Positions 2,237-32,954 of a DNA stretch of 33,007 bases are shown here, in pieces (within the stretch, counting starts at the first letter, position 1; every line of letters begins with the position of its first letter). Made by a program: the position numbers and the translations under genes. The stretch is from Bacteroidia bacterium (GTDB taxonomy: Bacteria; Bacteroidota; Bacteroidia; SpSt-205). The DNA lies in NCBI GenBank assembly GCA_025060275.1, contig JANXCJ010000002.1, forward strand, positions 1 to 33,007, written 5' to 3'. The notes beneath the pieces are model-generated. The model saw nothing but the letters and a program-made list of their open reading frames with translations. It made no database searches and had not been told where the DNA came from.

Positions 2237-2403
2237 GAATGGGATAGTAGCTCATGGGACAGCTCGCGCAGCAGGCGAAGGTTAGCCTCCTGGAGTGCAT
2301 TAGTCTTACGACTGGTGAGGGGAGCCCAAAGCCGCCGCCGCTGGATGCGTCGTCTCGCACGATTACGGCGTACATATACTCGTTTGTCTGGCTTTCTACC
2401 CAT
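2233..2403 (-). CDS. small arginine-rich hypothetical protein (56 aa), unannotated in the ORF track
   Basis: My translation: MGRKPDKRVYVRRNRARRRIQRRRLWAPLTSRKTNALQEANLRLLRELSHELLSHS. The ATG lies 5 nt after a perfect TACTTTTG -7 box. Its TGA overlaps the ATG of the downstream oxidoreductase gene (ATGA). It fills the otherwise empty 191-nt gap after nupC. Confidence 0.4.
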   Translation of the reverse strand: MGRKPDKRVYVRRNRARRRIQRRRLWAPLTSRKTNALQEANLRLLRELSHELLSHS

Positions 2404-2408
2404 AGGCG

Positions 2409-2416
2409 CAAAAGTA
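2409..2416 (-). promoter_or_regulatory. Bacteroidetes-type -7 promoter box TACTTTTG, 5 nt upstream of ATG 2403
   Basis: Plus strand reads caaaagta. Matches TAnnTTTG. The spacing falls in the same 4-8 nt range as the other unit heads in the window. Confidence 0.45.
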
Positions 2417-2427
2417 CGAAGAAGCCT

Positions 2428-3705
2428 CTATATCAGAAAAATACTTGCCCAGCAGGCGGAAAGTAGGGAGGCCATCGCACCACCAGCTACAGCTCGCAAA
2501 CCCAGCTCAGCAATTTCCCGCCTTCGTTCAGGAACTAAAGCCCCAATGCCCCCTAACTGAATAGCGATTGAACTAAAATTAGCAAAGCCACTTAGCGCAT
2601 AAGTAGCCAATATGCGAGCTTCTGTACTCAGAAACTGCATTTTAGAAAGATTTGTATAGGCTATAAATTCGTTTAGAACTATTTTCTGACCGATTAGGGC
2701 TCCCACAGCAAGAGTCTCTTGCCATTTTATGCCTATTAGCCATGCTATAGGGCGAAATATCTGTCCTAGCATCCATTCAAGGGAGAGCCCGGCATAAATT
2801 TTTTGAGAACTCTGGGCTATCCAGGGATTGAGTCCTATCCATTCCCCTGCCTTGAAGAGCAGGTGATTCACAAGAGCCAGGGTGGCAATAAAAGCTAATA
2901 ACATGGCAGCAATATTTGCTGCAAGGCGCAGACCTTCTGAGGCACCCTGGGCGAGTGCTTCTAATATATTTGTGGCTTTAGAAATGGAGGCTATTTGAAG
3001 AGACTTCTGATGAGAAATAGAATGACTTTCAGGAAGCAAGATTTTGGCAAATACCAAAGCCGCGGGGGCATTCATCACAGAAGCTGCCATAAGGTGCAGG
3101 GCGTAAGTCTGCCTTAGCTGAGGGTCCGTTCCACCCAAAAAGCCTACATAGGCGGCTAATACTCCTCCTGCCAGGGTAGCCATGCCCCCTACCATTATAG
3201 CTAATAGTTCTGAGCGTGAAAGTCCAGCTAAATAGGGACGGATGAGAAGAGGTGCTTCCGTCTGTCCTAAAAATATATTAGATGCTACGCAGAGGCTCTC
3301 GGGACCCGAAGTGCCTAAGGTCTTCCGCATCACCCATGCTATTACCCGTACTACCTGCTGGAGTATGCCTAAATGATACAATACTGCCGTAAGGGAGGCA
3401 AAGAAAATTACTGTGGGTAAGACTTGTAAGACGAATATGAATCCAAAAATTTCTGAATGTGTAGGACGGACTAGATTCCCAAAGAGGAATTCTGCTCCTT
3501 TATGGGAAAACTCTAATACTCTGACAAATGCCCAGCTTAGGTATTCAAAGGTACTACGAGCGGGAGGCCATCTTAGGAGAAGCCACCCTATGACTGCCTG
3601 AAGGAAAAGGCCACCTCCTATTACTCTTAGCATGAGGGGCCTTCGCTTTTCTGCTAATAGCCAAGCAAATAGCAAAAGAAGCGGTATGCCTAAAACCGCC
3701 TGCAT
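2428..3705 (-). CDS. nupC: NupC/NupG-family concentrative nucleoside transporter
   Basis: 425-aa polytopic membrane protein with CNT-family layout (N-terminal Gate-like helices; C-terminal NupC domain with GFANFSSIAIQLGGIG). Confidence 0.85.
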   Translation of the reverse strand: MQAVLGIPLLLLFAWLLAEKRRPLMLRVIGGGLFLQAVIGWLLLRWPPARSTFEYLSWAFVRVLEFSHKGAEFLFGNLVRPTHSEIFGFIFVLQVLPTVIFFASLTAVLYHLGILQQVVRVIAWVMRKTLGTSGPESLCVASNIFLGQTEAPLLIRPYLAGLSRSELLAIMVGGMATLAGGVLAAYVGFLGGTDPQLRQTYALHLMAASVMNAPAALVFAKILLPESHSISHQKSLQIASISKATNILEALAQGASEGLRLAANIAAMLLAFIATLALVNHLLFKAGEWIGLNPWIAQSSQKIYAGLSLEWMLGQIFRPIAWLIGIKWQETLAVGALIGQKIVLNEFIAYTNLSKMQFLSTEARILATYALSGFANFSSIAIQLGGIGALVPERRREIAELGLRAVAGGAMASLLSACWASIFLI

Positions 3706-3708
3706 TAG

Positions 3709-4293
3709 TTATTCATCCTCTTCCTCCTCTTTTCGCTTGAGGCGGCGCAGCTCATCTCGCAGGCGCGCTGCTGTTTCATAATCTTCACGGGCTAAGGCTT
3801 CTTCCAGAAGTCTTTCTAACTCTTCTCGGGTCGCGCCCCTGGAAGAAGTAGAACGCCTCTGTGTCTCCTCCACTTCCTCTTCAGTTCCTGGCTGTCCTGC
3901 CTTTTGTAATACTTCTTCCTCGCAATAGATAGGGGCACCCGCTCTCAATGCTAAGGCTATCCCATCACTGGGACGGCAATCCACTTCTATAAGTTCTTCT
4001 TTAGTGTCTAAAATAAGATAGGCATAAAAGGTAGAGTCTTGAAGCTTATGTATTGTAACCTCAGTGAGAGATACGTTTAGAGCTGAAAGCGTGTTGATGA
4101 AAAGGTCATGGGTAAGGGGACGGGGATGCCGAAATTTTTCTATTTCTACGTTGATGGCGTGGGCTTCAGGGAAGCCTATGACAATTGGCAGCCGACGATG
4201 CCCGTGCTTCTCCCGAAGTACCACTACAAAAGCATTGTGGAACTCAGTAGGAGGACGGCTCAGTCCTGCTACCTCCATTTCCACCTTGGGCAT
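3709..4293 (-). CDS. bifunctional nuclease (BFN/DUF151) family protein with C-terminal UVR motif
   Basis: VVLREKHGHRRLPIVIGFPEAHAI...RPLTHDL core of the BFN domain plus a C-terminal UVR-like helix, YETAARLRDELRRLK. The ORF track opens at TTG 4311. I prefer ATG 4293 (MPKVEMEVAGL) because a -7 box lies 6 nt upstream of it. Confidence 0.8.
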   Translation of the reverse strand: MPKVEMEVAGLSRPPTEFHNAFVVVLREKHGHRRLPIVIGFPEAHAINVEIEKFRHPRPLTHDLFINTLSALNVSLTEVTIHKLQDSTFYAYLILDTKEELIEVDCRPSDGIALALRAGAPIYCEEEVLQKAGQPGTEEEVEETQRRSTSSRGATREELERLLEEALAREDYETAARLRDELRRLKRKEEEEDE

Positions 4294-4299
4294 GGAAGT

Positions 4300-4316
4300 C
4301 AAAGGTATCAAAAATA
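4300..4316 (-). promoter_or_regulatory. tandem -7 boxes TATTTTTG-A-TACCTTTG; the proximal box is 6 nt upstream of ATG 4293
   Basis: Minus strand reads TATTTTTGATACCTTTGACTTCCATG. Both octamers match TAnnTTTG. Confidence 0.45.
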
Positions 4317-4323
4317 CCTTATC

Positions 4324-4878
4324 CTACTGCTTCGTCCACCCCTCTACAAAGCGCTGAAAAGCTATTGCGCGATGAGAGTATTTTTTCTTCCATGCCTCTC
4401 CCAATTCTGCTACTGTGTGTTCCGAACCCGCTGGAATAAATATAGGATCATATCCAAAGCCACCTTCTCCACGCATTTCCCGGGCTATCATCCCGAAACA
4501 GTAGCCCGTATAAAAGTGGTACTGAGCATTACCAAAATAAGCTACCAGCACCGCTACGAAGTAGGCATTCCGATGAGCAACCCCCTCCATAGCCTTCAAG
4601 AGTCTCTGGGGGCCGCCATATCTGGCGGAGAAGACACCGGGCTGACCTCCCAAAGCAGGAACAAAAAGCCCGCTATCCTCAGCAAGAACGGGGACCCTTG
4701 CCCAACTTGCATAAAATGCCGCCTTGCTAAGAGCATTTGCATAAAGGGTCTCGTAAGGCTCAGGGGCTTCGGGTGCCTCAGGAGGCAAACCCTCTAATAC
4801 CCATTCATTTCCAAGGATTGTCTGGGCTTCCTTGAGCTTGTAGGGGTTTTTCGTAGCAAATAACCACTTAGCCTCCAC
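4324..4878 (-). CDS. rdgB: non-canonical purine NTP pyrophosphatase (RdgB/HAM1 family)
   Basis: FATKNPYKLKE N-terminus and the GFGYDPIFIP motif. 184 aa. The start overlaps the 3' end of yciH. Confidence 0.9.
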   Translation of the reverse strand: MEAKWLFATKNPYKLKEAQTILGNEWVLEGLPPEAPEAPEPYETLYANALSKAAFYASWARVPVLAEDSGLFVPALGGQPGVFSARYGGPQRLLKAMEGVAHRNAYFVAVLVAYFGNAQYHFYTGYCFGMIAREMRGEGGFGYDPIFIPAGSEHTVAELGEAWKKKYSHRAIAFQRFVEGWTKQ

Positions 4879-5185
4879 TTCTTTTGGCTATATGTCCTTC
4901 TTTTTGTAGAAAGGCTAAAACTTTCTCCACACAGTTGCCCTGTAAGATTATCTTGCTGCCTACTACACTACCTCCTGTCGCGCACATTTGCCTTAGCTGC
5001 CGAGCTAAATTCTCCAAATCCTCTTTTTTACCTATGAAGCCCATAATCTCTGTTATCTCTTTATTTCCTGCTATGCGCTTGCGGGAGACGCGCAGATTCT
5101 GTTTTTGAGGCGTTTGAGTTTCAGGTGGAGGGGATGCCTTTAGGGGACGGGTAGAATAGACTAAGCGGTCTTGTTCTTTCATCAC
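4868..5185 (-). CDS. yciH: SUI1/eIF1-family translation initiation factor (YciH-like)
   Basis: About 105 aa with the SUI1 core KRIAGNKEITEI...LARQLRQMCATGGSV...IILQG. The start is either GTG 5185 or the adjacent ATG 5182. Confidence 0.85.
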   Translation of the reverse strand: MMKEQDRLVYSTRPLKASPPPETQTPQKQNLRVSRKRIAGNKEITEIMGFIGKKEDLENLARQLRQMCATGGSVVGSKIILQGNCVEKVLAFLQKEGHIAKRSGG

Positions 5186-5190
5186 TCCTT

Positions 5191-5198
5191 CAAAGATA
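5191..5198 (-). promoter_or_regulatory. -7 promoter box TATCTTTG, 5 nt upstream of GTG 5185 (8 nt from ATG 5182)
   Basis: Minus strand reads TATCTTTGAAGGAGTGATG. It lies in the 89-nt divergent yciH/cmk intergenic region. Confidence 0.45.
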
Positions 5199-5259
5199 AG
5201 AAATTTTACAAGCTAAGGTACCTCTCTATACGAAATGGAGAAGTTTCGCTTAGGATTTA

Positions 5260-5267
5260 TACCTTTG
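5260..5267 (+). promoter_or_regulatory. -7 promoter box TACCTTTG, 7 nt upstream of the cmk GTG 5275
   Basis: Plus strand reads TACCTTTGaagtgaaGTG. An in-frame TGA at 5266-5268 leaves GTG 5275 as the only possible start. Confidence 0.45.
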
Positions 5268-5274
5268 AAGTGAA

Positions 5275-5961
5275 GTGCGGCAAATCATCATTGCGATAGA
5301 TGGGTATGCGGCTACAGGCAAGAGTACCACGGCCCGTGGAGTAGCAGAAGCACTCAACTACCTTCATATAGACTCTGGAGCGATGTATAGAGCAGTAGCT
5401 TGGTACCTCTGGCAAAGAGGGGTTCGGACAGTCCAACCTGATCTACTTCCTACGCAATTAGAAGATTTAGCTCTTCATCTCGAGCGGCAAGGAAGAGAAA
5501 TGGCTATTTTCGTCAATGGCCGTCTACTCCAGGAAGAGCTGCGGAGACCTGAGATCAGCAGGTTTGCGAGTGAGGTAAGTGCGGTACCGTGGGTGCGTGA
5601 GAGGCTTATTGCGGAGCAGCGGAAATTAGGATGTAGAGGAGGGATAGTAATGGATGGTCGTGATATAGGTACAGTAGTCTTCCCTAATGCAGAACTAAAA
5701 GTTTTCATGCAGGCGGAGCTCTCTGTCCGAGTAGAGCGCCGTTACCAGGAGCTACTCGCAAGAGGAATAGTAGTGGATAAAAAGACTATCCTTCATGAAC
5801 TAAAGGAAAGAGATTATCGGGATGAGACGCGTGCCACAAGTCCCCTTCGCAAAGCCCCAGACATGTATGTGCTGGATACTACCCATTTGACTATCTCCGG
5901 GCAGATCGCACAAGTAGTAAAGTGGGCAAAAGAACTTATCTATGCCTCTACGCCGTCCTGA
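5275..5961 (+). CDS. cmk: cytidylate kinase
   Basis: IIIAIDGYAATGKSTTARGVA P-loop followed by IDSGAMYRA. 228 aa. Confidence 0.9.
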   Translation: MRQIIIAIDGYAATGKSTTARGVAEALNYLHIDSGAMYRAVAWYLWQRGVRTVQPDLLPTQLEDLALHLERQGREMAIFVNGRLLQEELRRPEISRFASEVSAVPWVRERLIAEQRKLGCRGGIVMDGRDIGTVVFPNAELKVFMQAELSVRVERRYQELLARGIVVDKKTILHELKERDYRDETRATSPLRKAPDMYVLDTTHLTISGQIAQVVKWAKELIYASTPS

Positions 5962-5971
5962 ATGTGAGGAT

Positions 5972-6850
5972 ATGGCTAAAAGACCGAAAGTTACAATAAG
6001 CAGCAGTTCGGGCTTTTGTTTCGGTGTGGTATATGCAGTAGAAATGGCAGAGGCGTATTTGGCTGAGCACCCCTATCTCTACTGTTTAGGGGATATAGTT
6101 CACAATGACGAGGAAGTAAAGCGTCTACAAGCCAAAGGATTACGCATAATCTCCCATAATGACCTTTCGCGCTTGCAGGGTGAGACTGTGCTGATTAGAG
6201 CACATGGAGAGCCCCCTGAGACCTATGCTATTGCCCTGCAGAATAACATACACTTGTTAGATGCCTCCTGCCCTGTCGTACTTAAACTTCAAAATAGGAT
6301 AAGGGAAATAGACCGAGAGGGTGTGCAGATAGTTTTACTGGGCACTTTGGGTCATCCCGAAGTGATAGGCCTTGTAGGACAGATACAAAAGGCTAAGCTT
6401 TTCATAGTTTCTTCTCCCGAAGATGTGGAGGCGCTTTCGCTGGACCCTGAAATACCTACTTACCTTTTTAGTCAGACTACTAAAGCACCGGCTCTTTTCT
6501 CTGCTGTGAGGGAAGCCCTATTGGCTAAGGTGCCGAACGCAATAATTGCGGATACGCTGTGCCGTCAGGTCTCCAATAGAGAACCTCATCTTATGGACTT
6601 TGCTCGTAGCCAAGATGTGGTGCTCTTTGTAGGTGGAAAGAAAAGTTCTAACGGCAAGGCGCTTTTTTCCATATGTCAGGCAGCAAACCCTCGTAGTTAT
6701 TATATTTCCATCCCGCAAGAGATAAATTGGGAATGGTTAGAAGGTGCAGAGCGAATCGGGATTGCTGGAGCTACTTCTACTCCTCATTGGCTGATGGAGA
6801 GAGTCAAGGCATATATAGAAGCCCACTACGAGAGTGAAGAAAGGGATTAG
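5972..6850 (+). CDS. ispH: 4-hydroxy-3-methylbut-2-enyl diphosphate reductase
   Basis: SGFCFGVVYAV, IVHNDEEV, RAHG and SQTT motifs of IspH/LytB. I chose ATG 5972 rather than the ORF-track 5942, which overlaps cmk. Confidence 0.9.
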   Translation: MAKRPKVTISSSSGFCFGVVYAVEMAEAYLAEHPYLYCLGDIVHNDEEVKRLQAKGLRIISHNDLSRLQGETVLIRAHGEPPETYAIALQNNIHLLDASCPVVLKLQNRIREIDREGVQIVLLGTLGHPEVIGLVGQIQKAKLFIVSSPEDVEALSLDPEIPTYLFSQTTKAPALFSAVREALLAKVPNAIIADTLCRQVSNREPHLMDFARSQDVVLFVGGKKSSNGKALFSICQAANPRSYYISIPQEINWEWLEGAERIGIAGATSTPHWLMERVKAYIEAHYESEERD

Positions 6851-7859
6851 CCTTCTCATAGTAGGGGGGGTCTATGCCCAAATTGGGGGGGGATGGAGCT
6901 ATGATTTTATTCGTATTGCTGCCACGGCGCGCACAGCCGCATTAGGAAGTATCGCATTCCCGGGAAAGCCAGACTTAGGAGCGGCTTTCCAGAACCCTGC
7001 TCTTTTGAGCGCTCGTCATACCCATACTTTTCAGATTAGCTTGCATCCTTACCTTGCTGATATTGTTGTCGGAAGTCTGGCTTATGGACATGAATGGCGA
7101 GGGGTGGGAACTCTCTGGACAGGCTTACAATATATTGATTATGGGGAATTTAGGCATGCGGACGAGGTAGGGAATATCTTGGGAGTTTTTAGAGCGTATG
7201 AAGGATTCATTGCAGGAGGGGCTGCTCGCCATTTCGGGAAGTGGCACGCGGGTATGAACCTTAAGTTCCCTTTCTCAGTTATCTCGCTCCAGTCGTATAG
7301 GCGTGCGGGTGTGGCTGCAGACATAGGAGTTCTTTATGAAGATACAGTGAGAGGGTGGGGAATTAGCTTACTACTGCGAGACCTCGGAACAGAGCTTTAT
7401 CGATCAGGAGGACGTCCTTTTGCTCAGCCTTTTCCTACCTCGCTACAGGGTTCAGTAAGTTATAAGGTGCCGCATGCTCCTTTTCGCCTTCATTTAGCTC
7501 TCATTCACCTCCAGAGGTGGCGCATGGCTTACAATGATCCTATGCAACCCACTCGGTATGACCTGAGTGGAAACCCTATGCCCCCGCCCCCACCAAAATG
7601 GACGGAGCATCTTTTTCGGCACTTTGTACTGGGGTTGGAGCTGCTACCGGATAAAATAATTAGCTTTCGTTTTGCTTATAATGTGCAGAGGCGGCGCGAG
7701 CTTAATCCTATAGGGAGTTCTTCTTTTGGTGGTATGAGCTTTGGCACCGCTCTCCAAGCCCGAAGGTGGGGCTTAGAATATGCTTACTCAATTTTCTTCC
7801 GGAGAATGGGAGTGCATAGCTTCTCCTTGACCGTGCGACCTTTCAAACAACTCCCCTGA
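6834..7859 (+). CDS. porQ: type IX secretion system outer-membrane protein PorQ-like
   Basis: Signal peptide ending VYA-QIGGG, then ARTAALGS...NPALL near the N-terminus. Also DIGV and HAPFRLHL...LQRW motifs and a length of about 340 aa, as I recall for the PorQ family. Recognised from memory only. Confidence 0.6.
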   Translation: MKKGISLLIVGGVYAQIGGGWSYDFIRIAATARTAALGSIAFPGKPDLGAAFQNPALLSARHTHTFQISLHPYLADIVVGSLAYGHEWRGVGTLWTGLQYIDYGEFRHADEVGNILGVFRAYEGFIAGGAARHFGKWHAGMNLKFPFSVISLQSYRRAGVAADIGVLYEDTVRGWGISLLLRDLGTELYRSGGRPFAQPFPTSLQGSVSYKVPHAPFRLHLALIHLQRWRMAYNDPMQPTRYDLSGNPMPPPPPKWTEHLFRHFVLGLELLPDKIISFRFAYNVQRRRELNPIGSSSFGGMSFGTALQARRWGLEYAYSIFFRRMGVHSFSLTVRPFKQLP

Positions 7860-8963
7860 ATGAGAGAGGAGGAGATACTCGCCCTCATAGCGCTCACTCA
7901 AGTAGAAGGTGTGGGGAGCAAGTATATTCGCCAGCTTCGTAAACGATGGGGAAGCCTTGAAGTTTTATGGGATTCTAAGAGGGCATCAGAATTTCCATCT
8001 CGTATTCAGGAACTTTTTTCACGCCTTCCGGACTTTCGTCGGAAAGCTGAGCAAATTCTTTACCAGTGTGAGAGGCTCTCTATCAAGGTAATTCCTTTTT
8101 GGGAGGAAGGATTTCCTCCTTTATTAGAAGAAATAGCTCATCCCCCCGTGATTATTTATAAGCGAGGAGTTTTATCTCTCACTGGGCTTCCCTTTGTGGC
8201 TGTGGTGGGCACCCGGAAGCCCAGCTCATATGGGCTTCAGGTTACTGCATACTTTGTAGAGGCACTTGTGGAGGAGGGGGTTGTAGTTGTTAGTGGATTG
8301 GCTTATGGCATTGATGCGCAAGCTCATAAAGCTACGCTAGAGAGAGGCGGAAAGACCGTCGCAGTCTTAGCGCATGGATTAGATATGATTTATCCATCCT
8401 CGCATAAACGCCTTGCGGAAGCTATTCTTGCGACAGGCGCATGGATAAGTGAGTATCCGCCGGGGACCAAGCTTCATCCACGTCTTTTTCCTTTCCGGAA
8501 TAGGATTATTGCAGGTTTGTCCCACCTTACGTTGATTGTGGAGTCAGGAGAGAAGGGGGGAGCATTATTTACAGCCCGAGCGGCCTTTGAGGCGAATAGA
8601 CCTGTCTTTGCTGTACCGGGTTCAATTTTTTCTCCTACCTCTCAAGGGTGCCATAGGCTAATAGCTGATCAAATAGCTCACATAGCCTGGCATCCACATG
8701 TAGCCTTAGCAGAGCTAAAGACCCAATTGGGACAGTTACGCTTTTCCCCTCCCTCCTTACCTGAACCGAAAGACCCGTTAGAAGCAAGGATTTATGCTTT
8801 ATTAGCTTCGGGGGCGCGACATGTAGATGAAGTTGCCTTATATATGGATTTGCCTGTAGATGAGCTGCTTATGAAGCTGACCCTTATGGAGATAAGCGGC
8901 TGGATAATCCAAAAGCCAGGAGGCTACATTATGCGGGCAGTCCCTCCAAATGCCATATCTTAA
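7860..8963 (+). CDS. dprA: DNA-processing protein DprA (Smf)
   Basis: VVSGLAYGIDAQAHKATL, FPFRNRIIAGLS and VFAVPGSIFS motifs. The ATG directly abuts the porQ stop. Confidence 0.9.
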   Translation: MREEEILALIALTQVEGVGSKYIRQLRKRWGSLEVLWDSKRASEFPSRIQELFSRLPDFRRKAEQILYQCERLSIKVIPFWEEGFPPLLEEIAHPPVIIYKRGVLSLTGLPFVAVVGTRKPSSYGLQVTAYFVEALVEEGVVVVSGLAYGIDAQAHKATLERGGKTVAVLAHGLDMIYPSSHKRLAEAILATGAWISEYPPGTKLHPRLFPFRNRIIAGLSHLTLIVESGEKGGALFTARAAFEANRPVFAVPGSIFSPTSQGCHRLIADQIAHIAWHPHVALAELKTQLGQLRFSPPSLPEPKDPLEARIYALLASGARHVDEVALYMDLPVDELLMKLTLMEISGWIIQKPGGYIMRAVPPNAIS

Positions 8964-9822
8964 TGAGGCCGTCATCTCCAGCCGAAACAAGTGTCTCTGG
9001 CGTAGTCCATAAAAGCGTATTCACGCTCCGTTTGTGTCCTTCTAAGGTAAGGCATTTCTCCCGATTGTAGGTGTCCCAGAGGTGAATGTACCTATCTCTA
9101 CCCCCACTAGCTAGAATGCGTCCTGCAGGATGCCATGCTAACCCTGTCAGAGTGAGATTGTGAGCTGGAGACTCCCAGAGAAGTTGCATTTGTATATCCC
9201 ATATCTTAAGCATACCAGAGCGCCCGCCGGTAGCCACAAAGGCGGATTGAGGAGAAACTTGAAGAGTGAAGACAAAATGGGGCTCTACCGAGATAGAACG
9301 CGTTACGCTCTTAGTTTCCCTGCTAATCTCATATACGTTTCCATCCCTACCTGCTGTAAGAAATCTCTCTTCTCTCAAAACCAGCACAAAGCCTCGCAAA
9401 CCTGCTGGTGTAACTTTGATACTTGCATAGGGCTCTGCCCGAGCTGTGTCCCAGAAGAGAAAATAGCCATCTCTGCCTGAGCTCCACCCTTCTACTTGCT
9501 GTGGATGAGAACTCAGACCAAAAACTGCACTTTGATGGGCTTGAATGGCTCTGATGACTTTACGCTGAGCCAAGTCTAAAACATATACTACTCCATTACT
9601 CTGCCCCACATAAAGCTGTTTATGTGAAGCCATCCAGTGAAGAGCATAAATTGCTGCTGGGGTATGGGCAATTGCTCTGACCTGCTTGCCACTTACACAG
9701 CGCCACTCTGCGATGAGCCCATCCGAGCCGCCAGAGTAAAGCACGTTCCTTTCGTAGTCACAGACTAAGGCATAAACAGGGCCACAATGTCCTGGTAGAT
9801 CCCAACTACCTAAAAGACGCAC
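8929..9822 (-). CDS. WD40-repeat beta-propeller protein, no signal peptide
   Basis: Repeated blades end in WD-like dipeptides (LIAEW, LKIWD, IHLWD, IKIWH) with GH-type starts. 297 aa, GTG start. Its 3' end overlaps dprA convergently by 35 nt. Confidence 0.8.
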   Translation of the reverse strand: MRLLGSWDLPGHCGPVYALVCDYERNVLYSGGSDGLIAEWRCVSGKQVRAIAHTPAAIYALHWMASHKQLYVGQSNGVVYVLDLAQRKVIRAIQAHQSAVFGLSSHPQQVEGWSSGRDGYFLFWDTARAEPYASIKVTPAGLRGFVLVLREERFLTAGRDGNVYEISRETKSVTRSISVEPHFVFTLQVSPQSAFVATGGRSGMLKIWDIQMQLLWESPAHNLTLTGLAWHPAGRILASGGRDRYIHLWDTYNREKCLTLEGHKRSVNTLLWTTPETLVSAGDDGLIKIWHLEGLPA

Positions 9823-10032
9823 ATGACATTAAACAATATCGAACGGTAGAGAGAGGACAAAGATTCTCGCCCCATACCGAACCCAAAAACCTTGAGCTGA
9901 GGGAAAGTGGTACAAGATTTCAGTGAAGACTCAGGGGGCATATTGGCGTGTTCTGTGGTAGGAAAGGAACACCAGACTCGGATTTTCTCCGTCCTAATTA
10001 GGCAGCTGCTACAAGCTGTTTCTCTCTCAAAC

Positions 10033-10206
10033 TTACTCCGTGTAAAATGTATAGAGGATATAACCCTTTTTCTGCGCGAGCCTTTTTATCATGTCTGTGG
10101 TGGTGCCCGTGGTAGCACGTAATTGTTGGGTTAATTCTTGCATACTTACCTCTTCATTCGTACCTCAGAGGGCTTTGAAATAGTTTTCATCCGCAGGGCT
10201 CTGCAT
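10033..10206 (-). pseudogene. decayed remnant of a DtxR/MntR-family metalloregulator (N-terminal wHTH only, with an in-frame TGA)
   Basis: My translation: MQSPADENYFKAL*GTNEEVSMQELTQQLRATTGTTTDMIKRLAQKKGYILYTFYTE*. It parallels the MntR/DtxR N-terminus (EDYlk.Iy ... dIAe.L.v...sVT.M.kkL...GyI.Ye.Y). An in-frame TGA sits at 10165-10167, and the frame ends where the dimerisation domain should begin. Confidence 0.4.
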
Positions 10207-11679: not shown

Positions 11680-11705
11680 AAGGGGAGTTTGTAGAAAAGA
11701 CCTTC

Positions 11706-26439: not shown

Positions 26440-26442
26440 AAC

Positions 26443-29400
26443 TTAGTTCGTTTTATAAACTTTTATTGTCCATGAACCAACTCGTAGAAAATAGATGCCT
26501 GCAGCAAGCTCAGAACCTATGAACTTGTGAATTCCCTGAGGAAGTTCTCCTTGCCACATTAATCTCCCATAGCCGTCATGAAGAGCTAAGTGATAGGTAC
26601 GGGGTAAAAGTATATAAAGCACCTCTGTAAAAGGATTAGGTCCTATGCGAATACCTTCTTGGCTAAATTCGTCTAAGGCAGAGGGGTTAGGCAGCTTAAT
26701 GACGGCATCTGGCTTGGTTAGGGTATCGTAGCAGCCGTAAAGATTGGAAACGATAAGGGTAACTGTGTATCGTCCTGGATTAGTATAGTAATATTCAGGA
26801 TTGGGTAGGTTAGAGGAGGCGTTGGGGTTGTTTGGGTCTCCAAAGAGCCATAACCAGCTTGTAGCCCCTTGGGCTTGCGAGACAAAGTAGGCGGTATCTG
26901 CCTCATATAAAATTGGTGGGAATACCGAAAAATCTGCTATGGGAGTGGGATAGACTATAACTTGTCGCTGCATAGTTGCAGTATCATTCCCACTTGCAGA
27001 AAGAGCATACAGCGTTACTGTATATTCTCCAGAAAAGGTATAAGTGTGAGTAGGGTCGGTCTGAGTGCTGCGGGGGCTCCCATCTCCGAAGTCCCAAATG
27101 TAAGCACTTGCATATGTGCTCTGGTTAGTGAAGCTCACTGTGAGGGGTGGACAACCTTGAAGGGGTGTTGCTGTGAAGTTGGCAAGGGGAAGGTGGCGGA
27201 TGACTAATGTGGTTTCACAGGCTGCGGTATTGCTGCTGATGCATCCCCTTGCATCTATGACTGTCAGGCGGAGTTGATAGGTGCCTGCGTTTGGGTAGAG
27301 GATTGTGACGGGATTGCCTGTTGCTCCTCTTCCGTCTCCTAAATCCCAATAATAGGTGTATGGAGGGGTACCGCCTATCGCAGTAGCAGAGAGGGTTATG
27401 AGTCCTCCTGGCACGAGGTTACCCGAGATGTTAAAGCACCCGACGGCTAAGGGCTGGATTTGTGGGCGAGGATGTACTGTAAGGGTTATGAGGTTGGAGG
27501 ATATAGGCTGTCCTCGTACGCAAGGAGTATTACCGATTGCGATAGCTTGAATTTGATCGCCTGCCTGAGGGTTTGTGTGAGTGAATAGAGTTCCCGTGCC
27601 TACAGGTGTATTACCTACATACCAAGTAATGGTAGGATTAGGCGCAAAGTATTGAAGCTGTGCTATAAAGGTGATAGGAGATCCTTCGCAAACTTCGTTG
27701 GAGCCATTTAGGGGCTGAATGGATAGAGTGGGAGCGGGAATAGAAAGAACGGTGAGAGTGTCTCTATAGGGGTCCGACCACCCACAGCAGGGAGAATAGG
27801 TTTGATGCTGTATCACGTAGGTACCGGGAGTATTGAAGGTAAGTTGGACGCTTTGTTGAGTGGGCCCTGAAATAGGAGGATGAGCTCCTCCAAAATCCCA
27901 CGAGTAGTCCTGAGCATTAGATAGGCTGCTTGTAAAAGTAACCTGCCCTCCCAAGCAGATTGTATCTTGGGTTTGGGTAAAAGTAGGATTAGTACTGCTT
28001 CCATCATCATGGATATCTAAATATTCATAGTAAGTGTAAGTCTGCCCATTAGCTATGAGAGAGAGACTTTTGCGTCCCATGGTTGTATAGCGGGTAGTTA
28101 CGGTATCACCTATGGCGGTGGGAGGGGTACTTCCTGGTCCGAAAAACCACACAAGGTACCCTGTAGCATCCGTCCAGAGGCGAACGGTGCGTTCGGTACA
28201 TCCTGTATAGCGTATGTATATTTTAGGTTCGTCGGGGAGGCGAAAAGTTGCCTGTGTAGGAGCTATACTGCTGGGAGAGATGTAGATGTCTTGTGCTAAA
28301 CCCGAGACGCCTGGACCTCCATTTCCTCCATTACCTCCATTTCCACCTGCGCCTCCATTTCCACCGTAGCCGATGTCGCAAGCATTGGGTTGTCCTGAAC
28401 ACCCACGAGCTCCACCACATCCACCTGCACCGCCTATACCGCCTATGCCGCCAAGACCGCCGGGGGCCCCTGCACCCGGTAAGCTGGATTCAGCCGTAAC
28501 ATCTACTAAAAGGGCATTCGGCCCATTGTCCCATAGATATGTACCGAAAGAGCCTCCGCCGCCTCCACCGCCTTGTCCTCCTTTGCCACCCTCACCACCT
28601 TCACCACCGCCGCCTCCTCCTGCCCCAGCACCATTTGTGTTAGATGGAAAGCAAATAAGGTTACCCTGGCTTCCACCACCGCCGCCTCCCCCTCCGCCTG
28701 AGCCATGTTGTCCATCTTCTCCATTTTGCCCATCACCTGGACGGAAAAATCCCGCTGTGTGTGATGGTACTCCGGGCGCACCCATTGCCCCCGGCGCTCC
28801 ATTTTGACCAGGTTCTCCATCAGCTCCGTTCTGTCCAGGAAAGTTGTCACATCCTAAAGAGATAAGAGTAGAGTTACCTGTACCTCCTGCGCCACCATTT
28901 CCACCAGCGGGGGCGAAAGGCTGAGCAGAAGTAGGGTTTCCTGCACTGCCGGGGGCTCCTGTGAAGGCTTGCCCTCCTGGTCCACATGTGCCCCTTTGAC
29001 CTCCATCTCCCCCTCTCCCGCCTGCCACGAGGCCTCCAGACCAACTACTTCCACCACTGCCCCCACTTCTGCAGCAGCCGCCATCTTCATCTCCCTGCTC
29101 TCCAATTTGACCAGCTGCGCCGTTACGGCCTGCTGCCCCGTTAGCTCCGGGGGCTCCATCTGCACCGGCGCCTGCATAAAAGCTGCAACGATTAATTACA
29201 TAATTACTACATCCATTTAGATATAGGGCGTAAGTAGTAGTCCCTGCGCCAAGGGCTGTAGCATCCTCCACATAAACCTCTAAATCCTGAATTCGGAAGC
29301 CTGTTACACTAATACCTTCTATGGCTACCAGACGGTTTGGGTTGGATTGAGGATTCACAGCAGCGCGTAAAATAATAGTAGGATAAAGATTGGTCTTTAG

Positions 29401-29667
29401 CCACCCTTGACTGGGATCAAATCCCCCTTCTAACTCTAAATCGTTATGCAGAGGAAGAGGATGATTCAAGGTGTAAATGCCATAGCTGAGGTAGATTCTG
29501 CGAATTGTAGGAGTGAGAAGGTTTGTGACTGCATAGTTGAGTTCAGCAGGATTTGATCGGGTGCCTACCCCTGGACCTGTTGTACCATTTGGAGACACGA
29601 AGATAATGTCGCATTCTTGTGCCCACAGGAAGCCTAATCCTATTAGCCCCCGGAGAAAAAAGTGCAT
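26443..29667 (-). CDS. giant secreted glycine-rich PKD-repeat protein with T9SS type A C-terminal sorting domain (paralog A)
   Basis: Signal peptide MHFFLRGLIGLGFLWA-QE. The N-terminal domain and Gly-rich module are colinear with paralog B, followed by PKD/Ig units (WDFGDG, WDLGDG). The C-terminus is GPNPFTEVLYILLP...AAGIYFLRVGSWTIKVYKTN. I chose ATG 29667 (a -7 box lies 4 nt upstream); the ORF track opens at TTG 29682. Confidence 0.9.
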   Translation of the reverse strand: MHFFLRGLIGLGFLWAQECDIIFVSPNGTTGPGVGTRSNPAELNYAVTNLLTPTIRRIYLSYGIYTLNHPLPLHNDLELEGGFDPSQGWLKTNLYPTIILRAAVNPQSNPNRLVAIEGISVTGFRIQDLEVYVEDATALGAGTTTYALYLNGCSNYVINRCSFYAGAGADGAPGANGAAGRNGAAGQIGEQGDEDGGCCRSGGSGGSSWSGGLVAGGRGGDGGQRGTCGPGGQAFTGAPGSAGNPTSAQPFAPAGGNGGAGGTGNSTLISLGCDNFPGQNGADGEPGQNGAPGAMGAPGVPSHTAGFFRPGDGQNGEDGQHGSGGGGGGGGGSQGNLICFPSNTNGAGAGGGGGGEGGEGGKGGQGGGGGGGSFGTYLWDNGPNALLVDVTAESSLPGAGAPGGLGGIGGIGGAGGCGGARGCSGQPNACDIGYGGNGGAGGNGGNGGNGGPGVSGLAQDIYISPSSIAPTQATFRLPDEPKIYIRYTGCTERTVRLWTDATGYLVWFFGPGSTPPTAIGDTVTTRYTTMGRKSLSLIANGQTYTYYEYLDIHDDGSSTNPTFTQTQDTICLGGQVTFTSSLSNAQDYSWDFGGAHPPISGPTQQSVQLTFNTPGTYVIQHQTYSPCCGWSDPYRDTLTVLSIPAPTLSIQPLNGSNEVCEGSPITFIAQLQYFAPNPTITWYVGNTPVGTGTLFTHTNPQAGDQIQAIAIGNTPCVRGQPISSNLITLTVHPRPQIQPLAVGCFNISGNLVPGGLITLSATAIGGTPPYTYYWDLGDGRGATGNPVTILYPNAGTYQLRLTVIDARGCISSNTAACETTLVIRHLPLANFTATPLQGCPPLTVSFTNQSTYASAYIWDFGDGSPRSTQTDPTHTYTFSGEYTVTLYALSASGNDTATMQRQVIVYPTPIADFSVFPPILYEADTAYFVSQAQGATSWLWLFGDPNNPNASSNLPNPEYYYTNPGRYTVTLIVSNLYGCYDTLTKPDAVIKLPNPSALDEFSQEGIRIGPNPFTEVLYILLPRTYHLALHDGYGRLMWQGELPQGIHKFIGSELAAGIYFLRVGSWTIKVYKTN
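26446..26658 (-). other. region encoding a T9SS type A CTD (Por secretion tail, TIGR04183-like)
   Basis: The PNPF...GIYFLRV...KV.K pattern within the last roughly 70 aa. Confidence 0.8.
26659..28296 (-). repeat. array of PKD / Ig-like domains in paralog A (about five or six units)
   Basis: YSWDFGG, YYWDLGDG, YIWDFGDG and WLWLFGD cores. One Ig-like unit, VCEGSPITFIA...TLTVHPRP, is colinear with paralog B. A shared CCGWS motif precedes it. Confidence 0.75.
28297..29175 (-). other. glycine-rich module of paralog A
   Basis: Nine consecutive GXY triplets (GADGAPGANGAAGRNGAAGQIGEQGDE) and eight more (GQNGADGEPGQNGAPGAMGAPGVP). Also HGSGGGGGGGGGS and GGGGGGEGGEGGKGGQGGGGGGGSFGTYLWDNG. Confidence 0.8.
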
Positions 29668-29671
29668 AGGG

Positions 29672-29679
29672 CAAATATA
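29672..29679 (-). promoter_or_regulatory. -7 promoter box TATATTTG, 4 nt upstream of ATG 29667 of paralog A
   Basis: Minus strand reads TAATAATTGTATATTTGCCCTATG. The box lies within the 18-nt spacer after the AsmA-like stop codon. Confidence 0.45.
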
Positions 29680-29685
29680 CAATTA

Positions 29686-32616
29686 TTATATAGTGCCTAT
29701 AAGAACGGGATGCGGCTCAGCTAAGCGCAAAAAGAGAAGCCTTCGTACGAGGTATCGCCAGGGGTAGTACCAACGAAGGCCTTTGTGGGACTTCTCCACA
29801 TAGACTAGGAGGAGGCTTCTATCTAAGAATTCCTCTATCTGTTCTTCCAATGCTTCTAATGAAGGGTATCGCTGAGCTTTTCGGGACAGACGTGCTCCCT
29901 GAATACGGTATAAAAAACGATCCATAGGAATGTGATGAAAGCCTGTAACCTGAAGAGCGCCTACTCGTGTCATGAGGAGAGCATCAGTTATTCTCAAGAA
30001 GCCATCTGAAAAACTCAATTCAGGTATTTCTGCTATGAAGTCCAAAGTATCCTTATATGCTGCAAGGTAGTAAGGGCGAAACCAGCGTAGAAAGCGAGGT
30101 GTCCTCAATAAACCATTTCTGATGCATCCTTTTGTCCATATAGAGCTTTGCTCATGCCATTCCACAGTCGGAGTAAAACGCAGGACTGCTTGTGCTTCAC
30201 CCGAAAAAGTGCCTTGAAGACCTACTTGTCTAAGGGTTTCTAGGGTGTCTAAGTGCATATCCCTTAGGAAAGGTGCTAGGGGTACTTCTTTTATGCTCAA
30301 GCGTCCGTTGAGCATGTAGCAAGTAGAGTCCGTGCCGTCCAGGAAGCCTTTACCCTCTGCGATTGCACCTCGGTATCTGAGATTTAGGGTGTCTATCTCA
30401 ATGAGCCCTCGCTGAAGGTGAGCATAAATTTTACCCTCTTCCACTGGGATTCCATATAAATCAACTTCTTGCATTTGAGCTTGTAGATTAAGTTCCATTT
30501 GTCTGGGCAGATACACCCGTCGGCGGACCTGCCCCCCCTCTACATAGCGCCAGAAATTGCTCAGAGCGATTCCGCTGGCTGTCACCAGCAGGTTGCCCCT
30601 GAGATGCTGCCAATCTGTATAGAGATAGCCCAGTGTTCCTTGTAATTGTGCGTTTGCATTGATGTAGGCTTTTCCTATCTGGGCTTCCAAAGTGTCTATG
30701 CAAGTGAGAGAGGGATTATACCAAAGTCGTAAGGAAAGCCTATCTAAGTGAAGTCCTAACTTGGGAAAATAGCCCCTTACATCGGCGAGAGTGGCTTCCC
30801 CTTCTGTAGGATTATCCCAGCGGAATAGGGTATCCCATGCTCCCTCTGCACAGAATCTTGCCCTCAGCCATCCTTGACTCACATATATCCCATAAAGAGG
30901 GAGTACCTGCCATAACCAAGATAGCCCTATGCATGTATTTACTTCTACATTCGCTCCTTCTGGATAAAGAACGCCGTGAAGCGTGGCAAACCCATGTCCG
31001 GGCACCTCAGCCTTCAAATTCCGTAGCCATAAGTGTTTGTCTGATAGGGTTAGCCACCCACTGCCCTGAATCAGTACCTCATTCCATCTTCCCACACCAC
31101 TCACTTCTATTGAATCTCCGAGCCAAGAAACTGTAACATAGCCCTGAGAAGCATTTAGAAATAAATCACCCCTGCGTAGGGGTAGATGGCTATATAACTT
31201 TACATCTGCAGTTTCACGGAGAAAAGGTAACCATAAGCGCCCCTCTCCTATGAGAGCACCTTTGTGCTTTTTCATGGTTATGTGCTCCATCTGGGCTGTA
31301 CCATCCCATACTAACTTTCTACACTGAATACTGATAGATATGTCTTGCTGGTGCCTTTTTGTTAGTAAGGTCTGATAAGGCTGGAAAGCTTCTAAAAGGG
31401 ATGTCAAACGAGTGCTATCCATCTCCAACACTAAGCCTTTTGAAGTATTCCATATGCCCCATATGGCTATTTTGCCGAGTTGAGCCCTTGCCCTCAGGTC
31501 TTCTCTTCCTTCTCTCCATATCCATATAGTGTCTGCATTGCGAATTATAAGCCTAAAGTAACCCTGTTGCTCAGTCCAATGGAAATATCCCTCTATGCTC
31601 CAGGGTAACTTCTCATACTCTCCGCCTCCCCACACAAGAAGAGACTCTGGGGCTCCGCTCATGTACAGCTTTCCTAGTCCATGCCAGCCTATAATGCCGT
31701 TTATGCGGTAAATGCGCGATCCATCTCCATAGAGAGAGAACTCATGGTTACCTTTTGAATGACTTCCTGATATCTTTACATTATAGGTAGAGCCACTGAC
31801 TTTTCCGCGGAGGCTCATACTACCTACTTGGGGAAGGTTAGCCCACATGGATAAAAGGTGGTTAGCCCAAAGAGAATCCAACCGGAGATCAAAATAGCCC
31901 CAGAGGCGTTCCCACCCAGTAATATCACCCGAAAAGATAACTTGATTGTATGCAGAGTATAAGGATAGGGTAATCTCTCTCCAATTGTCCGTCTTTTTCC
32001 AATACGCCCCCTTATCTACACATAAGTTTATAGAGTTTGGTAAAGACTGTTTTTGCCCTTTTATGCATACTTCATTCACCATTAGCGAAGCATGCAGGGA
32101 AGAAAGCTTTATTTGAAGACTCTCTATCTCTAATCTTCCTGAGGCATGAAGTATATGTAAGGCAAGGAATACGCCAGGAGGAAAATTTTCTAGCCATAAT
32201 TCAAGAGAATCTACTTCCATATCTACTTGTTGGGGGGGAGGGTTAGTACGCCGGCGAGGGAAAAAGCGGAAGTTTTTTTGTCCTTTACCGAGTCTTATGA
32301 GGTGCAAACGCATGCCTTGAAATTTGACTCTCTCTATTTTTTCACCCTTTCCGCTGAGAAAAACTTGCCGAATGAGCCCCACCTTTTGTGTGTCTAATAG
32401 AAGAGTGCTTCCTACTCGCACTTCCTTCAGAGAAAGGTACCATCTCTGACTTAAGGGGTTCCAGGAGAAAGCCATTATTTCTCCTATCTCTACTTGAGCT
32501 CCTACTAAATAGGTTAGAATGTGCTCTATCAGGGTATGTCCTAATCTTTCCTTTCCATACCAAACGATTCCACCCACTCCGCTACCCAAAGCCAGGGCTA
32601 CTAAATACTTCCGCAT
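29686..32616 (-). CDS. AsmA/TamB-like large membrane-anchored protein
   Basis: 976 aa with a single N-terminal TM anchor (YLVALALGSGVGGIVWY), followed by a long, beta-rich, motif-poor body as in AsmA-family proteins. The family assignment rests on architecture only and is tentative. Confidence 0.4.
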   Translation of the reverse strand: MRKYLVALALGSGVGGIVWYGKERLGHTLIEHILTYLVGAQVEIGEIMAFSWNPLSQRWYLSLKEVRVGSTLLLDTQKVGLIRQVFLSGKGEKIERVKFQGMRLHLIRLGKGQKNFRFFPRRRTNPPPQQVDMEVDSLELWLENFPPGVFLALHILHASGRLEIESLQIKLSSLHASLMVNEVCIKGQKQSLPNSINLCVDKGAYWKKTDNWREITLSLYSAYNQVIFSGDITGWERLWGYFDLRLDSLWANHLLSMWANLPQVGSMSLRGKVSGSTYNVKISGSHSKGNHEFSLYGDGSRIYRINGIIGWHGLGKLYMSGAPESLLVWGGGEYEKLPWSIEGYFHWTEQQGYFRLIIRNADTIWIWREGREDLRARAQLGKIAIWGIWNTSKGLVLEMDSTRLTSLLEAFQPYQTLLTKRHQQDISISIQCRKLVWDGTAQMEHITMKKHKGALIGEGRLWLPFLRETADVKLYSHLPLRRGDLFLNASQGYVTVSWLGDSIEVSGVGRWNEVLIQGSGWLTLSDKHLWLRNLKAEVPGHGFATLHGVLYPEGANVEVNTCIGLSWLWQVLPLYGIYVSQGWLRARFCAEGAWDTLFRWDNPTEGEATLADVRGYFPKLGLHLDRLSLRLWYNPSLTCIDTLEAQIGKAYINANAQLQGTLGYLYTDWQHLRGNLLVTASGIALSNFWRYVEGGQVRRRVYLPRQMELNLQAQMQEVDLYGIPVEEGKIYAHLQRGLIEIDTLNLRYRGAIAEGKGFLDGTDSTCYMLNGRLSIKEVPLAPFLRDMHLDTLETLRQVGLQGTFSGEAQAVLRFTPTVEWHEQSSIWTKGCIRNGLLRTPRFLRWFRPYYLAAYKDTLDFIAEIPELSFSDGFLRITDALLMTRVGALQVTGFHHIPMDRFLYRIQGARLSRKAQRYPSLEALEEQIEEFLDRSLLLVYVEKSHKGLRWYYPWRYLVRRLLFLRLAEPHPVLIGTI

Positions 32617-32624
32617 ATATCCAT

Positions 32625-32632
32625 TACCTTTG
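32625..32632 (+). promoter_or_regulatory. -7 promoter box TACCTTTG, 7 nt upstream of ATG 32640
   Basis: Plus strand reads TACCTTTGttagtctATG. It lies inside a divergent intergenic region of only 23 nt. Confidence 0.45.
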
Positions 32633-32639
32633 TTAGTCT

Positions 32640-32954
32640 ATGGCACAAGAAAACCCTCCAGGGGCTAATGTACTGAACATAGAGCTTACAGATGAAGTGG
32701 CAGAGGGTATTTATTCAAATTTGGCAATAATTTCCCACACTCCTACGGAGTTCGTGGTGGATTTCCTACAGGTACTGCCGGGGCTGCCGAAGGCGAAGGT
32801 ACGCGCCCGCATAATCCTTTCTCCTTATCACTATAAGCGTCTACTTATTGCTATGCAAGACAACCTCGCCAAGTACGAAAGTCGTGTTGGGGAAATTACT
32901 GTTCAGGATGAATGTCTTCCGCCCGTCGCTCAGGGGGGTCCAGGGTTTGCTTAG
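32640..32954 (+). CDS. DUF3467 family protein
   Basis: NIELTDEVAEGIYSNLAIISHTPTEFVVDFLQVLPGLPKAKVRARIILSPYHYKRLL.AMQDNLAKYE matches my memory of the DUF3467 consensus closely. 104 aa. Confidence 0.8.
   Translation: MAQENPPGANVLNIELTDEVAEGIYSNLAIISHTPTEFVVDFLQVLPGLPKAKVRARIILSPYHYKRLLIAMQDNLAKYESRVGEITVQDECLPPVAQGGPGFA

Follow-up and report, generated by a model that had tools for sequence, protein, structure and literature searches.

Bacteroidota are the main bacterial phylum in which translation is initiated without Shine-Dalgarno (SD) pairing. In Bacteroides and Flavobacterium, sigma-ABfr promoters carry a -33 element (TTTG) and a -7 element (TAnnTTTG). The -7 element of Flavobacterium johnsoniae has been refined to TAHHTTTG (Baez et al. 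2019), and the promoters of this species extend from T at -12 to G at -5, with 4-5 nt from the terminal G to the transcription start, an AT-rich -18 region and a -33 element that is 'much less evident' and thus a weak criterion. In the model species, some 25-40 nt separate the box from the start codon. For B. thetaiotaomicron, the median leader is 32 nt and 3.7% of mRNAs are leaderless; for F. psychrophilum, the values are 24 nt and 5.5%. In F. johnsoniae the mean leader is 33 nt, and leaders exceed 10 nt in 87% of transcripts. Leaderless mRNAs have been explicitly ruled out as an explanation in Bacteroides and Flavobacterium work. GeneMarkS-2 assigns 90% of the phylum to its group B (leadered mRNAs with a non-SD ribosome-binding site), whose motif is found before first and internal genes alike, and Zheng et al. 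report 2.4% leaderless genes for one genome among 37 from Bacteroidetes/Chlorobi. A literature search, incomplete in its coverage, turned up no description of a Bacteroidota lineage dominated by leaderless mRNAs. The lineage described here carries the same octamer, with the same exclusion of G at -10/-9 and A/T-richness near -18, but at a modal distance from the start codon that would leave no leader.

Octamers at the heads of transcription units

The window, that is, the whole stretch of 33,007 nt analysed, belongs to the metagenome-assembled genome (MAG) of an uncultured Bacteroidia bacterium and had been noted to hold nine perfect TAnnTTTG octamers 4-8 nt upstream of start codons and a one-mismatch version before argS. 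Each of the nine was reproduced in the sequence, as was the argS near-box. The boxes are as follows.

2416-2409, minus strand: -7 box TACTTTTG, 5 nt to ATG 2403 of a 56-aa ORF, the head of a unit with a GFO_IDH_MocA gene (ATGA overlap)
4307-4300, minus strand: -7 box TACCTTTG, 6 nt to ATG 4293 of the BFN-domain gene
4316-4309, minus strand: second, tandem -7 box TATTTTTG of the BFN-domain gene, distal to the box at 4307-4300
5198-5191, minus strand: -7 box TATCTTTG, 5 nt to GTG 5185 or 8 nt to ATG 5182 (the start in the public record) of yciH/SUI1; heads the yciH-Ham1 unit
5260-5267, plus strand: -7 box TACCTTTG, 7 nt to GTG 5275 of cmk; heads cmk-ispH-(341 aa)-dprA
12176-12169, minus strand: -7 box TATTTTTG, 4 nt to ATG 12164 of the PurE-like (AIRC) gene
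12208-12215, plus strand: -7 box TACCTTTG, 4 nt to GTG 12220 of ftsX; heads ftsX-DUF3098-bacA-truB-ribF
17411-17418, minus strand: one-mismatch box CAAATTTG, 5 nt to ATG 17405 of argS
17443-17450, plus strand: -7 box TATTTTTG, 4 nt to GTG 17455 of queA; heads queA-amidohydrolase-bamA
29679-29672, minus strand: -7 box TATATTTG, 4 nt to ATG 29667 of a PKD-domain protein gene
32625-32632, plus strand: -7 box TACCTTTG, 7 nt to ATG 32640 of the DUF3467 gene, in a divergent intergenic region of only 23 nt

TAnnTTTG as such is not enriched in the window (23 found vs 19.4 +/- 4.4 in shuffles), and this would suit chance co-occurrence in sequence of ordinary composition. The placement of the octamers does not: 23 boxes and 28 starts give an expectation of 0.049 at 4-8 nt, and nine were observed (Poisson P = 4e-18). 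Moreover, control motifs preceded 0 of 132 publicly called starts in the related loci described below, where non-syntenic genes from about 15 genomes repeat the pattern. Chance was rejected on the control motifs and placement statistics, and its probability is negligible.

By our own curation, nine of the 12 uncoupled heads in the window have a perfect box and one has a near-box. It had been proposed that genes lacking the box are coupled to an upstream gene. This held for 13 internal genes, which overlap their neighbor or follow it within 3 nt, and failed for the uncoupled WD40 gene (start 9822) and AsmA-like gene (start 32616), for a 219-aa gene (start 11679, 26-nt gap) and for one 71-aa ORF. 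Rfam and tRNA scans of the window, which includes a 430-nt gap at 9823-10253, returned no RNA genes.

The box at 29672..29679 is located in a 19-nt gap behind the upstream gene and is probably an internal promoter. The gene that follows it belongs to a pair first described as glycine-rich paralogs, which proved to encode PKD-domain proteins instead; the downstream paralog (22519-26439) possesses a CHU_C type IX secretion signal. The match of the gene at 29686-32616 to AsmA is weak. No gene with exactly the products of the DUF3467, AsmA-like and PKD genes of the window was found in public records.

Placement and start codons across the clade

Our clade set consisted of the window and 15 related loci (284,826 bp from some 15 genomes, at least one of them from a hot spring); several loci are syntenic, and the counts therefore contain orthologous repeats. 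The distribution of box-to-start distances, which does not depend on how starts are chosen, shows a sharp peak at 4 nt. The distance is 3-8 nt in 80 of 128 cases and exactly 4 nt in 40, with none at 10-13 nt and a flat background further out, while three control motifs matched in composition occurred 0-3 times at 4-8 nt. Among publicly called starts, a perfect box at 3-8 nt precedes 28 of 42 divergent heads, 12 of 37 genes behind same-strand gaps of at least 12 nt, and one of 45 coupled internal genes. A perfect box is also present at each of the six tRNA transcription units that were found, 6-10 nt upstream of the mature 5' end. The boxes are restricted to unit heads and RNA genes, and the idea that they mark operon heads is borne out and extends to tRNA genes.

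The wider statement that almost every head is boxed stands for a majority: roughly 75% of the heads in the window and, in the clade, some 67% of divergent heads; about one third of the latter have no perfect box, and 'default' denotes most heads, not all. One-mismatch boxes as a class were not enriched over control motifs and were rejected as a means of raising the explained share of heads. Individual near-boxes of the form CAnnTTTG do recur at 4-5 nt.

Outside the clade the picture is different. Loci of other Bacteroidota (782 kb) have a box at 15 of 190 divergent and 18 of 272 same-strand uncoupled heads (about 7%), with a broad distribution of box-to-start distances, and this share agrees with the published leaderless fraction of 3.7-5.5%. 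The trait is limited to the clade within the Bacteroidota compared. The contrast with model species is real, and leaderless expression by default, with the transcription start placed by analogy, is supported for the lineage but not for the phylum. A sister-lineage locus (L083) shows a mixed pattern, and a metagenome scan with the clade-specific 341-aa protein yielded one further clade locus only (L062).

It is conceivable that the octamers are ordinary promoters and that the true starts lie farther downstream, in which case gene-caller bias or a preference for the longest ORF would have produced the abutment. Gene callers may themselves pick starts by upstream motifs, and some public calls in the clade are clearly wrong, such as a cmk called at 300 aa (L081) and a DUF1599 gene called through a tRNA. 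Protein N-termini argue against this explanation. In Cmk (residue 3 aligned to profile position 2), QueA, AroQ, Fe_dep_repress and TPP_enzyme_N, the profile match sets in at residue 2-4, counted from the boxed start, and full-length ArgS and YciH models are consistent with the chosen N-termini; because the N-termini match family profiles from residue 2-4, we consider the boxed start codons to be correct, as first chosen. The N-termini of orthologs are likewise conserved from residue 1-2, with diverging sequence upstream, and downstream starts would leave the in-frame ATG or GTG exactly 4 nt past the box, in 40 cases, without explanation. True starts farther downstream are thus extremely improbable.

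The identity of the motif and its exact spacing are both conserved. The argS orthologs of seven relatives have perfect boxes at 3-4 nt, and the queA box is kept with its spacing in five relatives. In six genomes the argS-queA intergenic region measures 29-49 nt and consists of two boxes placed back to back. How far apart the two boxes stand varies, but each keeps its distance to the start codon, and the N-termini (MLWSYELP; M[PLA]FWH) are preserved. In four genomes the 5' ends of the xerC-like and aroQ genes share 24 nt, each box lying inside the other gene.

Promoter identity of the octamer

Several features agree with the proposal that the octamer is the -7 element of the Bacteroidota primary sigma factor. 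G is found at -10 in four and at -9 in none of the 79 clade boxes at starts, which gives TAHHTTTG, and the 4-nt mode corresponds to the published distance to the transcription start. The 79 aligned promoters are A-rich at -20 to -18. A -33 element (TTTG about 19 nt upstream) was not found among them: there is no information content from -40 to -28 and the positions of TTTG are scattered, comparable to its weakness or absence in F. johnsoniae. Second boxes 9-60 nt upstream are rare in the clade set. Matches to sigma-70-like -35/-10 promoters are depleted (12 vs 22.6 expected), and such promoters were rejected as a real signal. Judged by their sequence, the octamers belong to the Bacteroidota type of sigma-A -7 promoter elements. 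Neither the window nor the related loci contain rpoD.

An octamer so close to the start codon could also be read as a non-SD ribosome-binding or enhancer signal (UAnnUUUG) in leadered mRNAs whose promoters lie farther upstream. Its distance is like that of a ribosome-binding site, several boxes lie in same-strand gaps of 15-46 nt that are likely to be read through, and GeneMarkS-2 finds a non-SD motif near starts in most Bacteroidetes (group B). Group B motifs, however, precede internal genes as well, whereas the clade box stands before one of 45, and it is identical to the -7 element of the phylum, down to the exclusion of G at -10/-9. Its presence upstream of all six tRNA units marks the box as a signal for transcription, not for ribosome binding. 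No other promoter-like signal is present upstream, and divergent junctions of 29 nt or with overlapping genes have no separate promoter. We regard a ribosome-binding role as very unlikely.

Probable leaderless heads and their meaning

If the octamers are sigma-A -7 elements, then the first genes of units in this lineage are most probably leaderless or nearly so, as judged from box sequence and placement. We infer both where transcription starts, relying on the 4-5 nt spacing that was mapped in F. johnsoniae, and how boxed heads are translated. Transcription would start on the first base of the start codon or 1-4 nt before it. Since the 4-nt mode equals the published spacing from G(-5) to the transcription start, +1 would coincide at this modal spacing with the A or G that opens the start codon. 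Start codons 3-5 nt from the box are ATG in 39 of 59 cases and GTG in the other 20, and TTG starts are seen at 6 and 8 nt from the box only; the presence of ATG or GTG at all 59 implies a purine at +1. First genes would accordingly be expressed from mRNAs with a 5'-terminal AUG or GUG and be translated without any upstream ribosome-binding signal. About one third of the perfectly leaderless starts would be 5'-GUG. Leaderless 5'-GUG starts are poorly translated by E. coli and accepted by mycobacteria.

Downstream genes in the clade overlap their neighbor or lie 0-6 nt apart, have no box, and are presumably translated by termination-reinitiation. Such coupling at overlapping stop and start codons has reportedly been described elsewhere (Huber et al. 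2019, PMC6728339); in the clade, the spacing of the genes suggests it.

It is also possible that the leaderless promoters are real but minor, most protein being made from longer transcripts that arise from alternative-sigma promoters or read-through. Same-strand boxes directly behind upstream genes leave no room for a terminator, one third of heads lack a box, and an orphan box about 200 nt before the WD40 gene suggests some leadered units. Divergent heads (intergenic -24 to 90 nt), on the other hand, have neither an upstream source of read-through nor another motif, and box and spacing are strongly conserved at 60-80% protein identity, implying selection. A merely minor contribution of the leaderless promoters is, in our view, distinctly unlikely. 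Where boxes lie in same-strand gaps of 15-46 nt, they could supplement read-through transcripts and not take their place.

Leaderless expression from boxed heads has its nearest counterpart in GeneMarkS-2 group C (Actinobacteria and Deinococcus-Thermus, including M. tuberculosis and D. deserti), which has in common with the clade a fixed short box distance, restriction to first-in-operon genes, a large leaderless share (inferred here) and AUG or GUG at the 5' end. The clade differs in its box (TAnnTTTG instead of the Pribnow TANNNT), in a spacer of 4 nt as opposed to 6-8 nt, and in a share of about 67% of divergent heads compared with the 25-50% quoted for group C. Archaeal leaderless transcription (group D; haloarchaea and Sulfolobales) also combines leaderless first genes with tight operons, but uses a TATA box at about -26 and the archaeal initiation machinery.

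A broader reading, which we consider unlikely, is that leaderless expression is ancestral in Bacteroidia or Bacteroidota and not a late specialization. A thermophilic ancestor would have put -7 boxes on its start codons, thereby making the SD interaction dispensable, and mesophilic descendants would later have gained SD-less leaders. If true, this would explain why the phylum retains an anti-SD sequence yet does not use it, and the overlapping divergent genes of the clade with their reciprocal embedded promoters, the tRNAs with leaders of 2-6 nt and the mixed sister lineage would be surviving witnesses.

With about two thirds of heads apparently leaderless, the lineage suggests that one and the same transcription machinery is compatible with another initiation regime. 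It may serve as a natural comparison that tells which features of ribosome and mRNA, such as anti-SD sequestration and the upstream A-rich 'Kozak-like' positions, are needed in the absence of any upstream mRNA. For annotation, the box pinpoints true starts and corrects public mis-calls in clade MAGs, and its placement explains the very short or overlapping divergent junctions. Finally, the lineage may represent a new case of the apparent association of thermophily, genome compaction and leaderless expression.

Placement of the box relative to start codons

The original prediction held that TAnnTTTG octamers lie 4-8 nt before the start codon of almost every first gene of a transcription unit (head), making leaderless mRNAs the default. 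Listing the sequence after each copy in the window reproduced all nine perfect boxes 4-8 nt ahead of a long-ORF ATG or GTG, as well as the near-box of argS, a palindromic one-mismatch CAAATTTG at 17411-17418, 5 nt ahead of the ATG. The motif itself is not over-represented, given 23 copies on both strands of the window versus 19.4 ± 4.4 in dinucleotide shuffles. Chance would place 0.049 of the 23 boxes at 4-8 nt from one of the 28 curated starts, and nine were seen there (Poisson P = 4e-18).

In the curated gene map of the window, a perfect box is present at nine of the 12 uncoupled heads and a near-box at one more, so that "almost every head" held only approximately. The accompanying claim that boxless genes are coupled to an upstream gene was borne out for 13 internal genes, which overlap or trail the upstream gene by no more than 3 nt and never carry a box (0/13), and failed for the WD40 (start 9822) and AsmA-like (start 32616) heads. 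Several other features of the window were recorded.

Additional features of the window
4300-4316 (-): two tandem -7 boxes 1 nt apart ahead of the BFN-domain gene; the upstream one would leave about 10 nt of leader or, alternatively, may drive an in-frame TTG start at 4302
9823-10253: 430-nt gap upstream of the WD40 gene, with no abutting box, a 71-aa ORF called on the + strand, and no match in Rfam and tRNA searches
10028-10035 (-): orphan perfect box TAAGTTTG, about 200 nt upstream of the WD40 gene
22519-32616 (-): three large tandem genes, namely two encoding PKD-domain proteins (1306 aa and 1074 aa) and, upstream of these, a 976-aa gene with a weak AsmA match only

The motif ATATTGTTTA recurs directly ahead of the WD40 start in the window and in two relatives' loci (L081 and L082). 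The 1306-aa PKD protein bears a CHU_C domain for type IX secretion, in keeping with a Bacteroidota origin. With the boundaries used here, the 976-aa and 1074-aa products are absent from public records, and public calls of these genes therefore probably use other starts.

A distance scan of the kind suggested earlier was performed, with control motifs, on mechanically called long ORFs, measuring from the box to the next in-frame start of the selected ORF. In a first set from the clade of "Bacteroidia bacterium" metagenome-assembled genomes (MAGs) closest to the window (158 kb), 33 of 58 distances fell at 4-8 nt, versus 0, 3, and 3 for three composition-matched control motifs. The full clade set of 284,826 bp (the window and 15 further loci, a sample of loci with partly orthologous repeats rather than whole genomes) placed 80 of 128 distances at 3-8 nt, with 7, 40, 13, 8, 6, and 6 at 3, 4, 5, 6, 7, and 8 nt, respectively. 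Beyond this sharp 4-nt peak (40/128), one distance fell at 9 nt and none at 10-13 nt, followed by a low flat background. Other Bacteroidota (782 kb, about 47 loci) showed broad distances with a hump at 14-33 nt and a slight excess at 4-8 nt (44/326 versus 15-20 for controls).

Perfect boxes at 3-8 nt by gene class, own ORFs
Divergent heads: clade 16/32; other Bacteroidota 15/190
Same-strand uncoupled genes: clade 13/40; other Bacteroidota 18/272
Coupled genes: clade 2/27; other Bacteroidota 1/97

Public starts from seven clade loci, four of which are syntenic and contribute the same orthologous heads repeatedly, and for which gene callers may take upstream motifs into account, gave a perfect box at 28/42 divergent heads, 12/37 same-strand uncoupled genes, and 1/45 coupled genes, and control motifs at 0/132. 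Approximately one third of clade heads have no recognisable box. Near-boxes (CAnnTTTG, TAnnTTAG, TTnnTTTG) lie at 3-5 nt at several of these, and one-mismatch boxes as a class show no excess over control motifs.

A promoter element abutting the start codon

Sigma-ABfr promoters have TAnnTTTG as their established -7 element, which in F. johnsoniae spans T-12 to G-5 with transcription starting 4-5 nt beyond. In that species G hardly ever occurs at -10/-9 (TAHHTTTG), patches rich in A and T occur at -18 and -28, and a -33 element is barely visible. Identification of the box as this element was upheld by 79 aligned clade sites, which match the consensus and likewise avoid G (4/79 at -10 and 0/79 at -9), are A-rich at -20 to -18, and have no -33 element. 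Because the modal 4-nt spacing agrees with that of F. johnsoniae, transcription would begin with the first nucleotide of the start codon itself. Of the 59 starts at 3-5 nt, 39 are ATG and 20 are GTG, so that +1 would be a purine; TTG starts are confined to distances of 6 and 8 nt. Matches to sigma-70-like -35/-10 promoters reach only about half of the shuffled number (12 versus 22.6 ± 5.6, window 1-20000), and none of them lies at a gene head.

It is conceivable that the box acts instead as a ribosome-binding site, and GeneMarkS-2 separates a non-SD ribosome-binding site (group B) from a promoter (group C) by whether the motif also precedes internal genes. Here the box is nearly confined to non-internal genes (1/45 coupled genes), and it precedes untranslated genes as well: in the clade loci, a perfect box lies 6-10 nt ahead of the mature tRNA 5' end in six of six tRNA transcription units. 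Both observations led us to reject a ribosome-binding site. The tRNA units, which comprise tRNA-Tyr/Gly, four tRNA-Leu orthologs, and a tRNA-Ala/Ala/Ser cluster, would again be almost leaderless, as the 5' leader left for RNase P to remove would measure only some 2-6 nt.

Boxed tRNA transcription units
L079 3846 and 4856; L080 4825; L082 4856; L088 4850 (+)
L087 19094 (-)

By sequence comparison the boxed start codons are correct, and profile alignments of boxed ORFs begin at the very N-terminus.

First aligned residue of boxed ORFs
Cmk: residue 3, profile position 2
QueA: residue 3, profile position 4-7
YciH: residue 2, profile position 2
ArgS: residue 22, profile position 24
AroQ: residue 4, profile position 2
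Fe_dep_repress: residue 3, profile position 3
TPP_enzyme_N: residue 3, profile position 2

The starts originally chosen for the PurE-like gene, cmk, BFN, ftsX, and a 56-aa ORF coincide with the public calls. Elsewhere, public calls appear to be mis-started where the box is ignored. In the relatives' loci, cmk is called at 300 aa (L081 9126-10028; orthologs 228 aa), the call of one gene begins 28 codons ahead of a boxed GTG (L079 8250-9311), and DUF1599 is called through a tRNA-Leu gene (L079 4964, L080 4882, L088 4893).

Two divergent junctions leave no space for leaders or separate promoters. The argS-queA intergenic region, 29-49 nt in six genomes, is made up of two back-to-back boxes, CAAAGTTA and TACCTTTG on opposite strands, around a spacer of variable length and sequence, and each box is kept 3-5 nt from its own start; the N-termini are conserved from residue 1-2 (QueA MLWSYELP, ArgS M[PLA]FWH). 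The 5' ends of the divergent xerC-like/aroQ pair overlap by 24 nt in four genomes (L079, 5989-6885(-)/6862-7299(+); L080; L082; L088), with each box located within codons 9-12 of the partner gene, 4 and 5 nt from the starts.

Distribution of the trait around the clade

Window ArgS shares 67-75% identity with its counterparts in eight "Bacteroidia bacterium" MAGs (including KatS3mg026, SKYG57, SKYB87, SKW77, and DT_Bin_51/56) versus 43-48% for all other Bacteroidota orders, and IspH/LytB identity is 74-82% inside the clade and at most 63% thereafter. The KatS3mg MAGs originate from Katase hot spring sediment. Because the relatives' loci share synteny with the window only over argS-queA-amidohydrolase-bamA, the PurE block, and cmk-ispH-dprA-WD40, most genes in the relatives' loci are independent test cases. 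In L087 (KatS3mg026), two overlapping calls (7518-8108 and 8095-8463) divide SAICAR synthase between them, reflecting a frameshift, pseudogene, or assembly error.

Leaderless initiation by default was supported as a probable mode for the majority of heads in this lineage, not for the phylum. The sister lineage L083 (GCA_052746655.1, 61% LytB identity) is mixed, with boxes at 4, 4, 4, and 7 nt and also at 11, 12, 16, 25, and 31 nt, and in L085 (59% LytB identity) the intergenic regions are 100-400 nt long and no box abuts a start. The trait is lineage-specific and seems graded around the clade.

Comparison with known leaderless systems

The best-supported reading is that sigma-A promoters abut the start codon in most transcription units of the lineage and would yield leaderless or near-leaderless mRNAs, while downstream genes, judged from spacing only, may rely on tight coupling. 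Pervasive leaderless transcription with a start-adjoining promoter box is known from Actinobacteria, Deinococcus-Thermus, and archaea; the architecture is similar here, but built with the Bacteroidota -7 box. GeneMarkS-2 placed 90% of Bacteroidetes genomes in the leadered non-SD group B, and an earlier survey, by a method able to detect only Pribnow-type boxes, found one of 37 Bacteroidetes/Chlorobi genomes with 2.4% leaderless genes. The predicted contrast with well-studied Bacteroides and Flavobacterium is confirmed by transcription start mapping, with leaderless shares of 3.7% in B. thetaiotaomicron and 5.5% in F. psychrophilum, and by leaders longer than 10 nt in 87% of F. johnsoniae transcripts. 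An older proposal that leaderless mRNAs could be abundant in Bacteroidetes is not borne out in these three species.

No published description of a leaderless-dominant Bacteroidota lineage was found in the part of the literature covered. The novelty would thus lie in the use of the Bacteroidota -7 box, by a thermophilic clade of Bacteroidia, for a leaderless architecture already known elsewhere. One boxed unit of the window begins with a YciH/SUI1 (eIF1-like) gene (4868-5185, -), whose presence could merit attention given that the lineage may depend on leaderless initiation.
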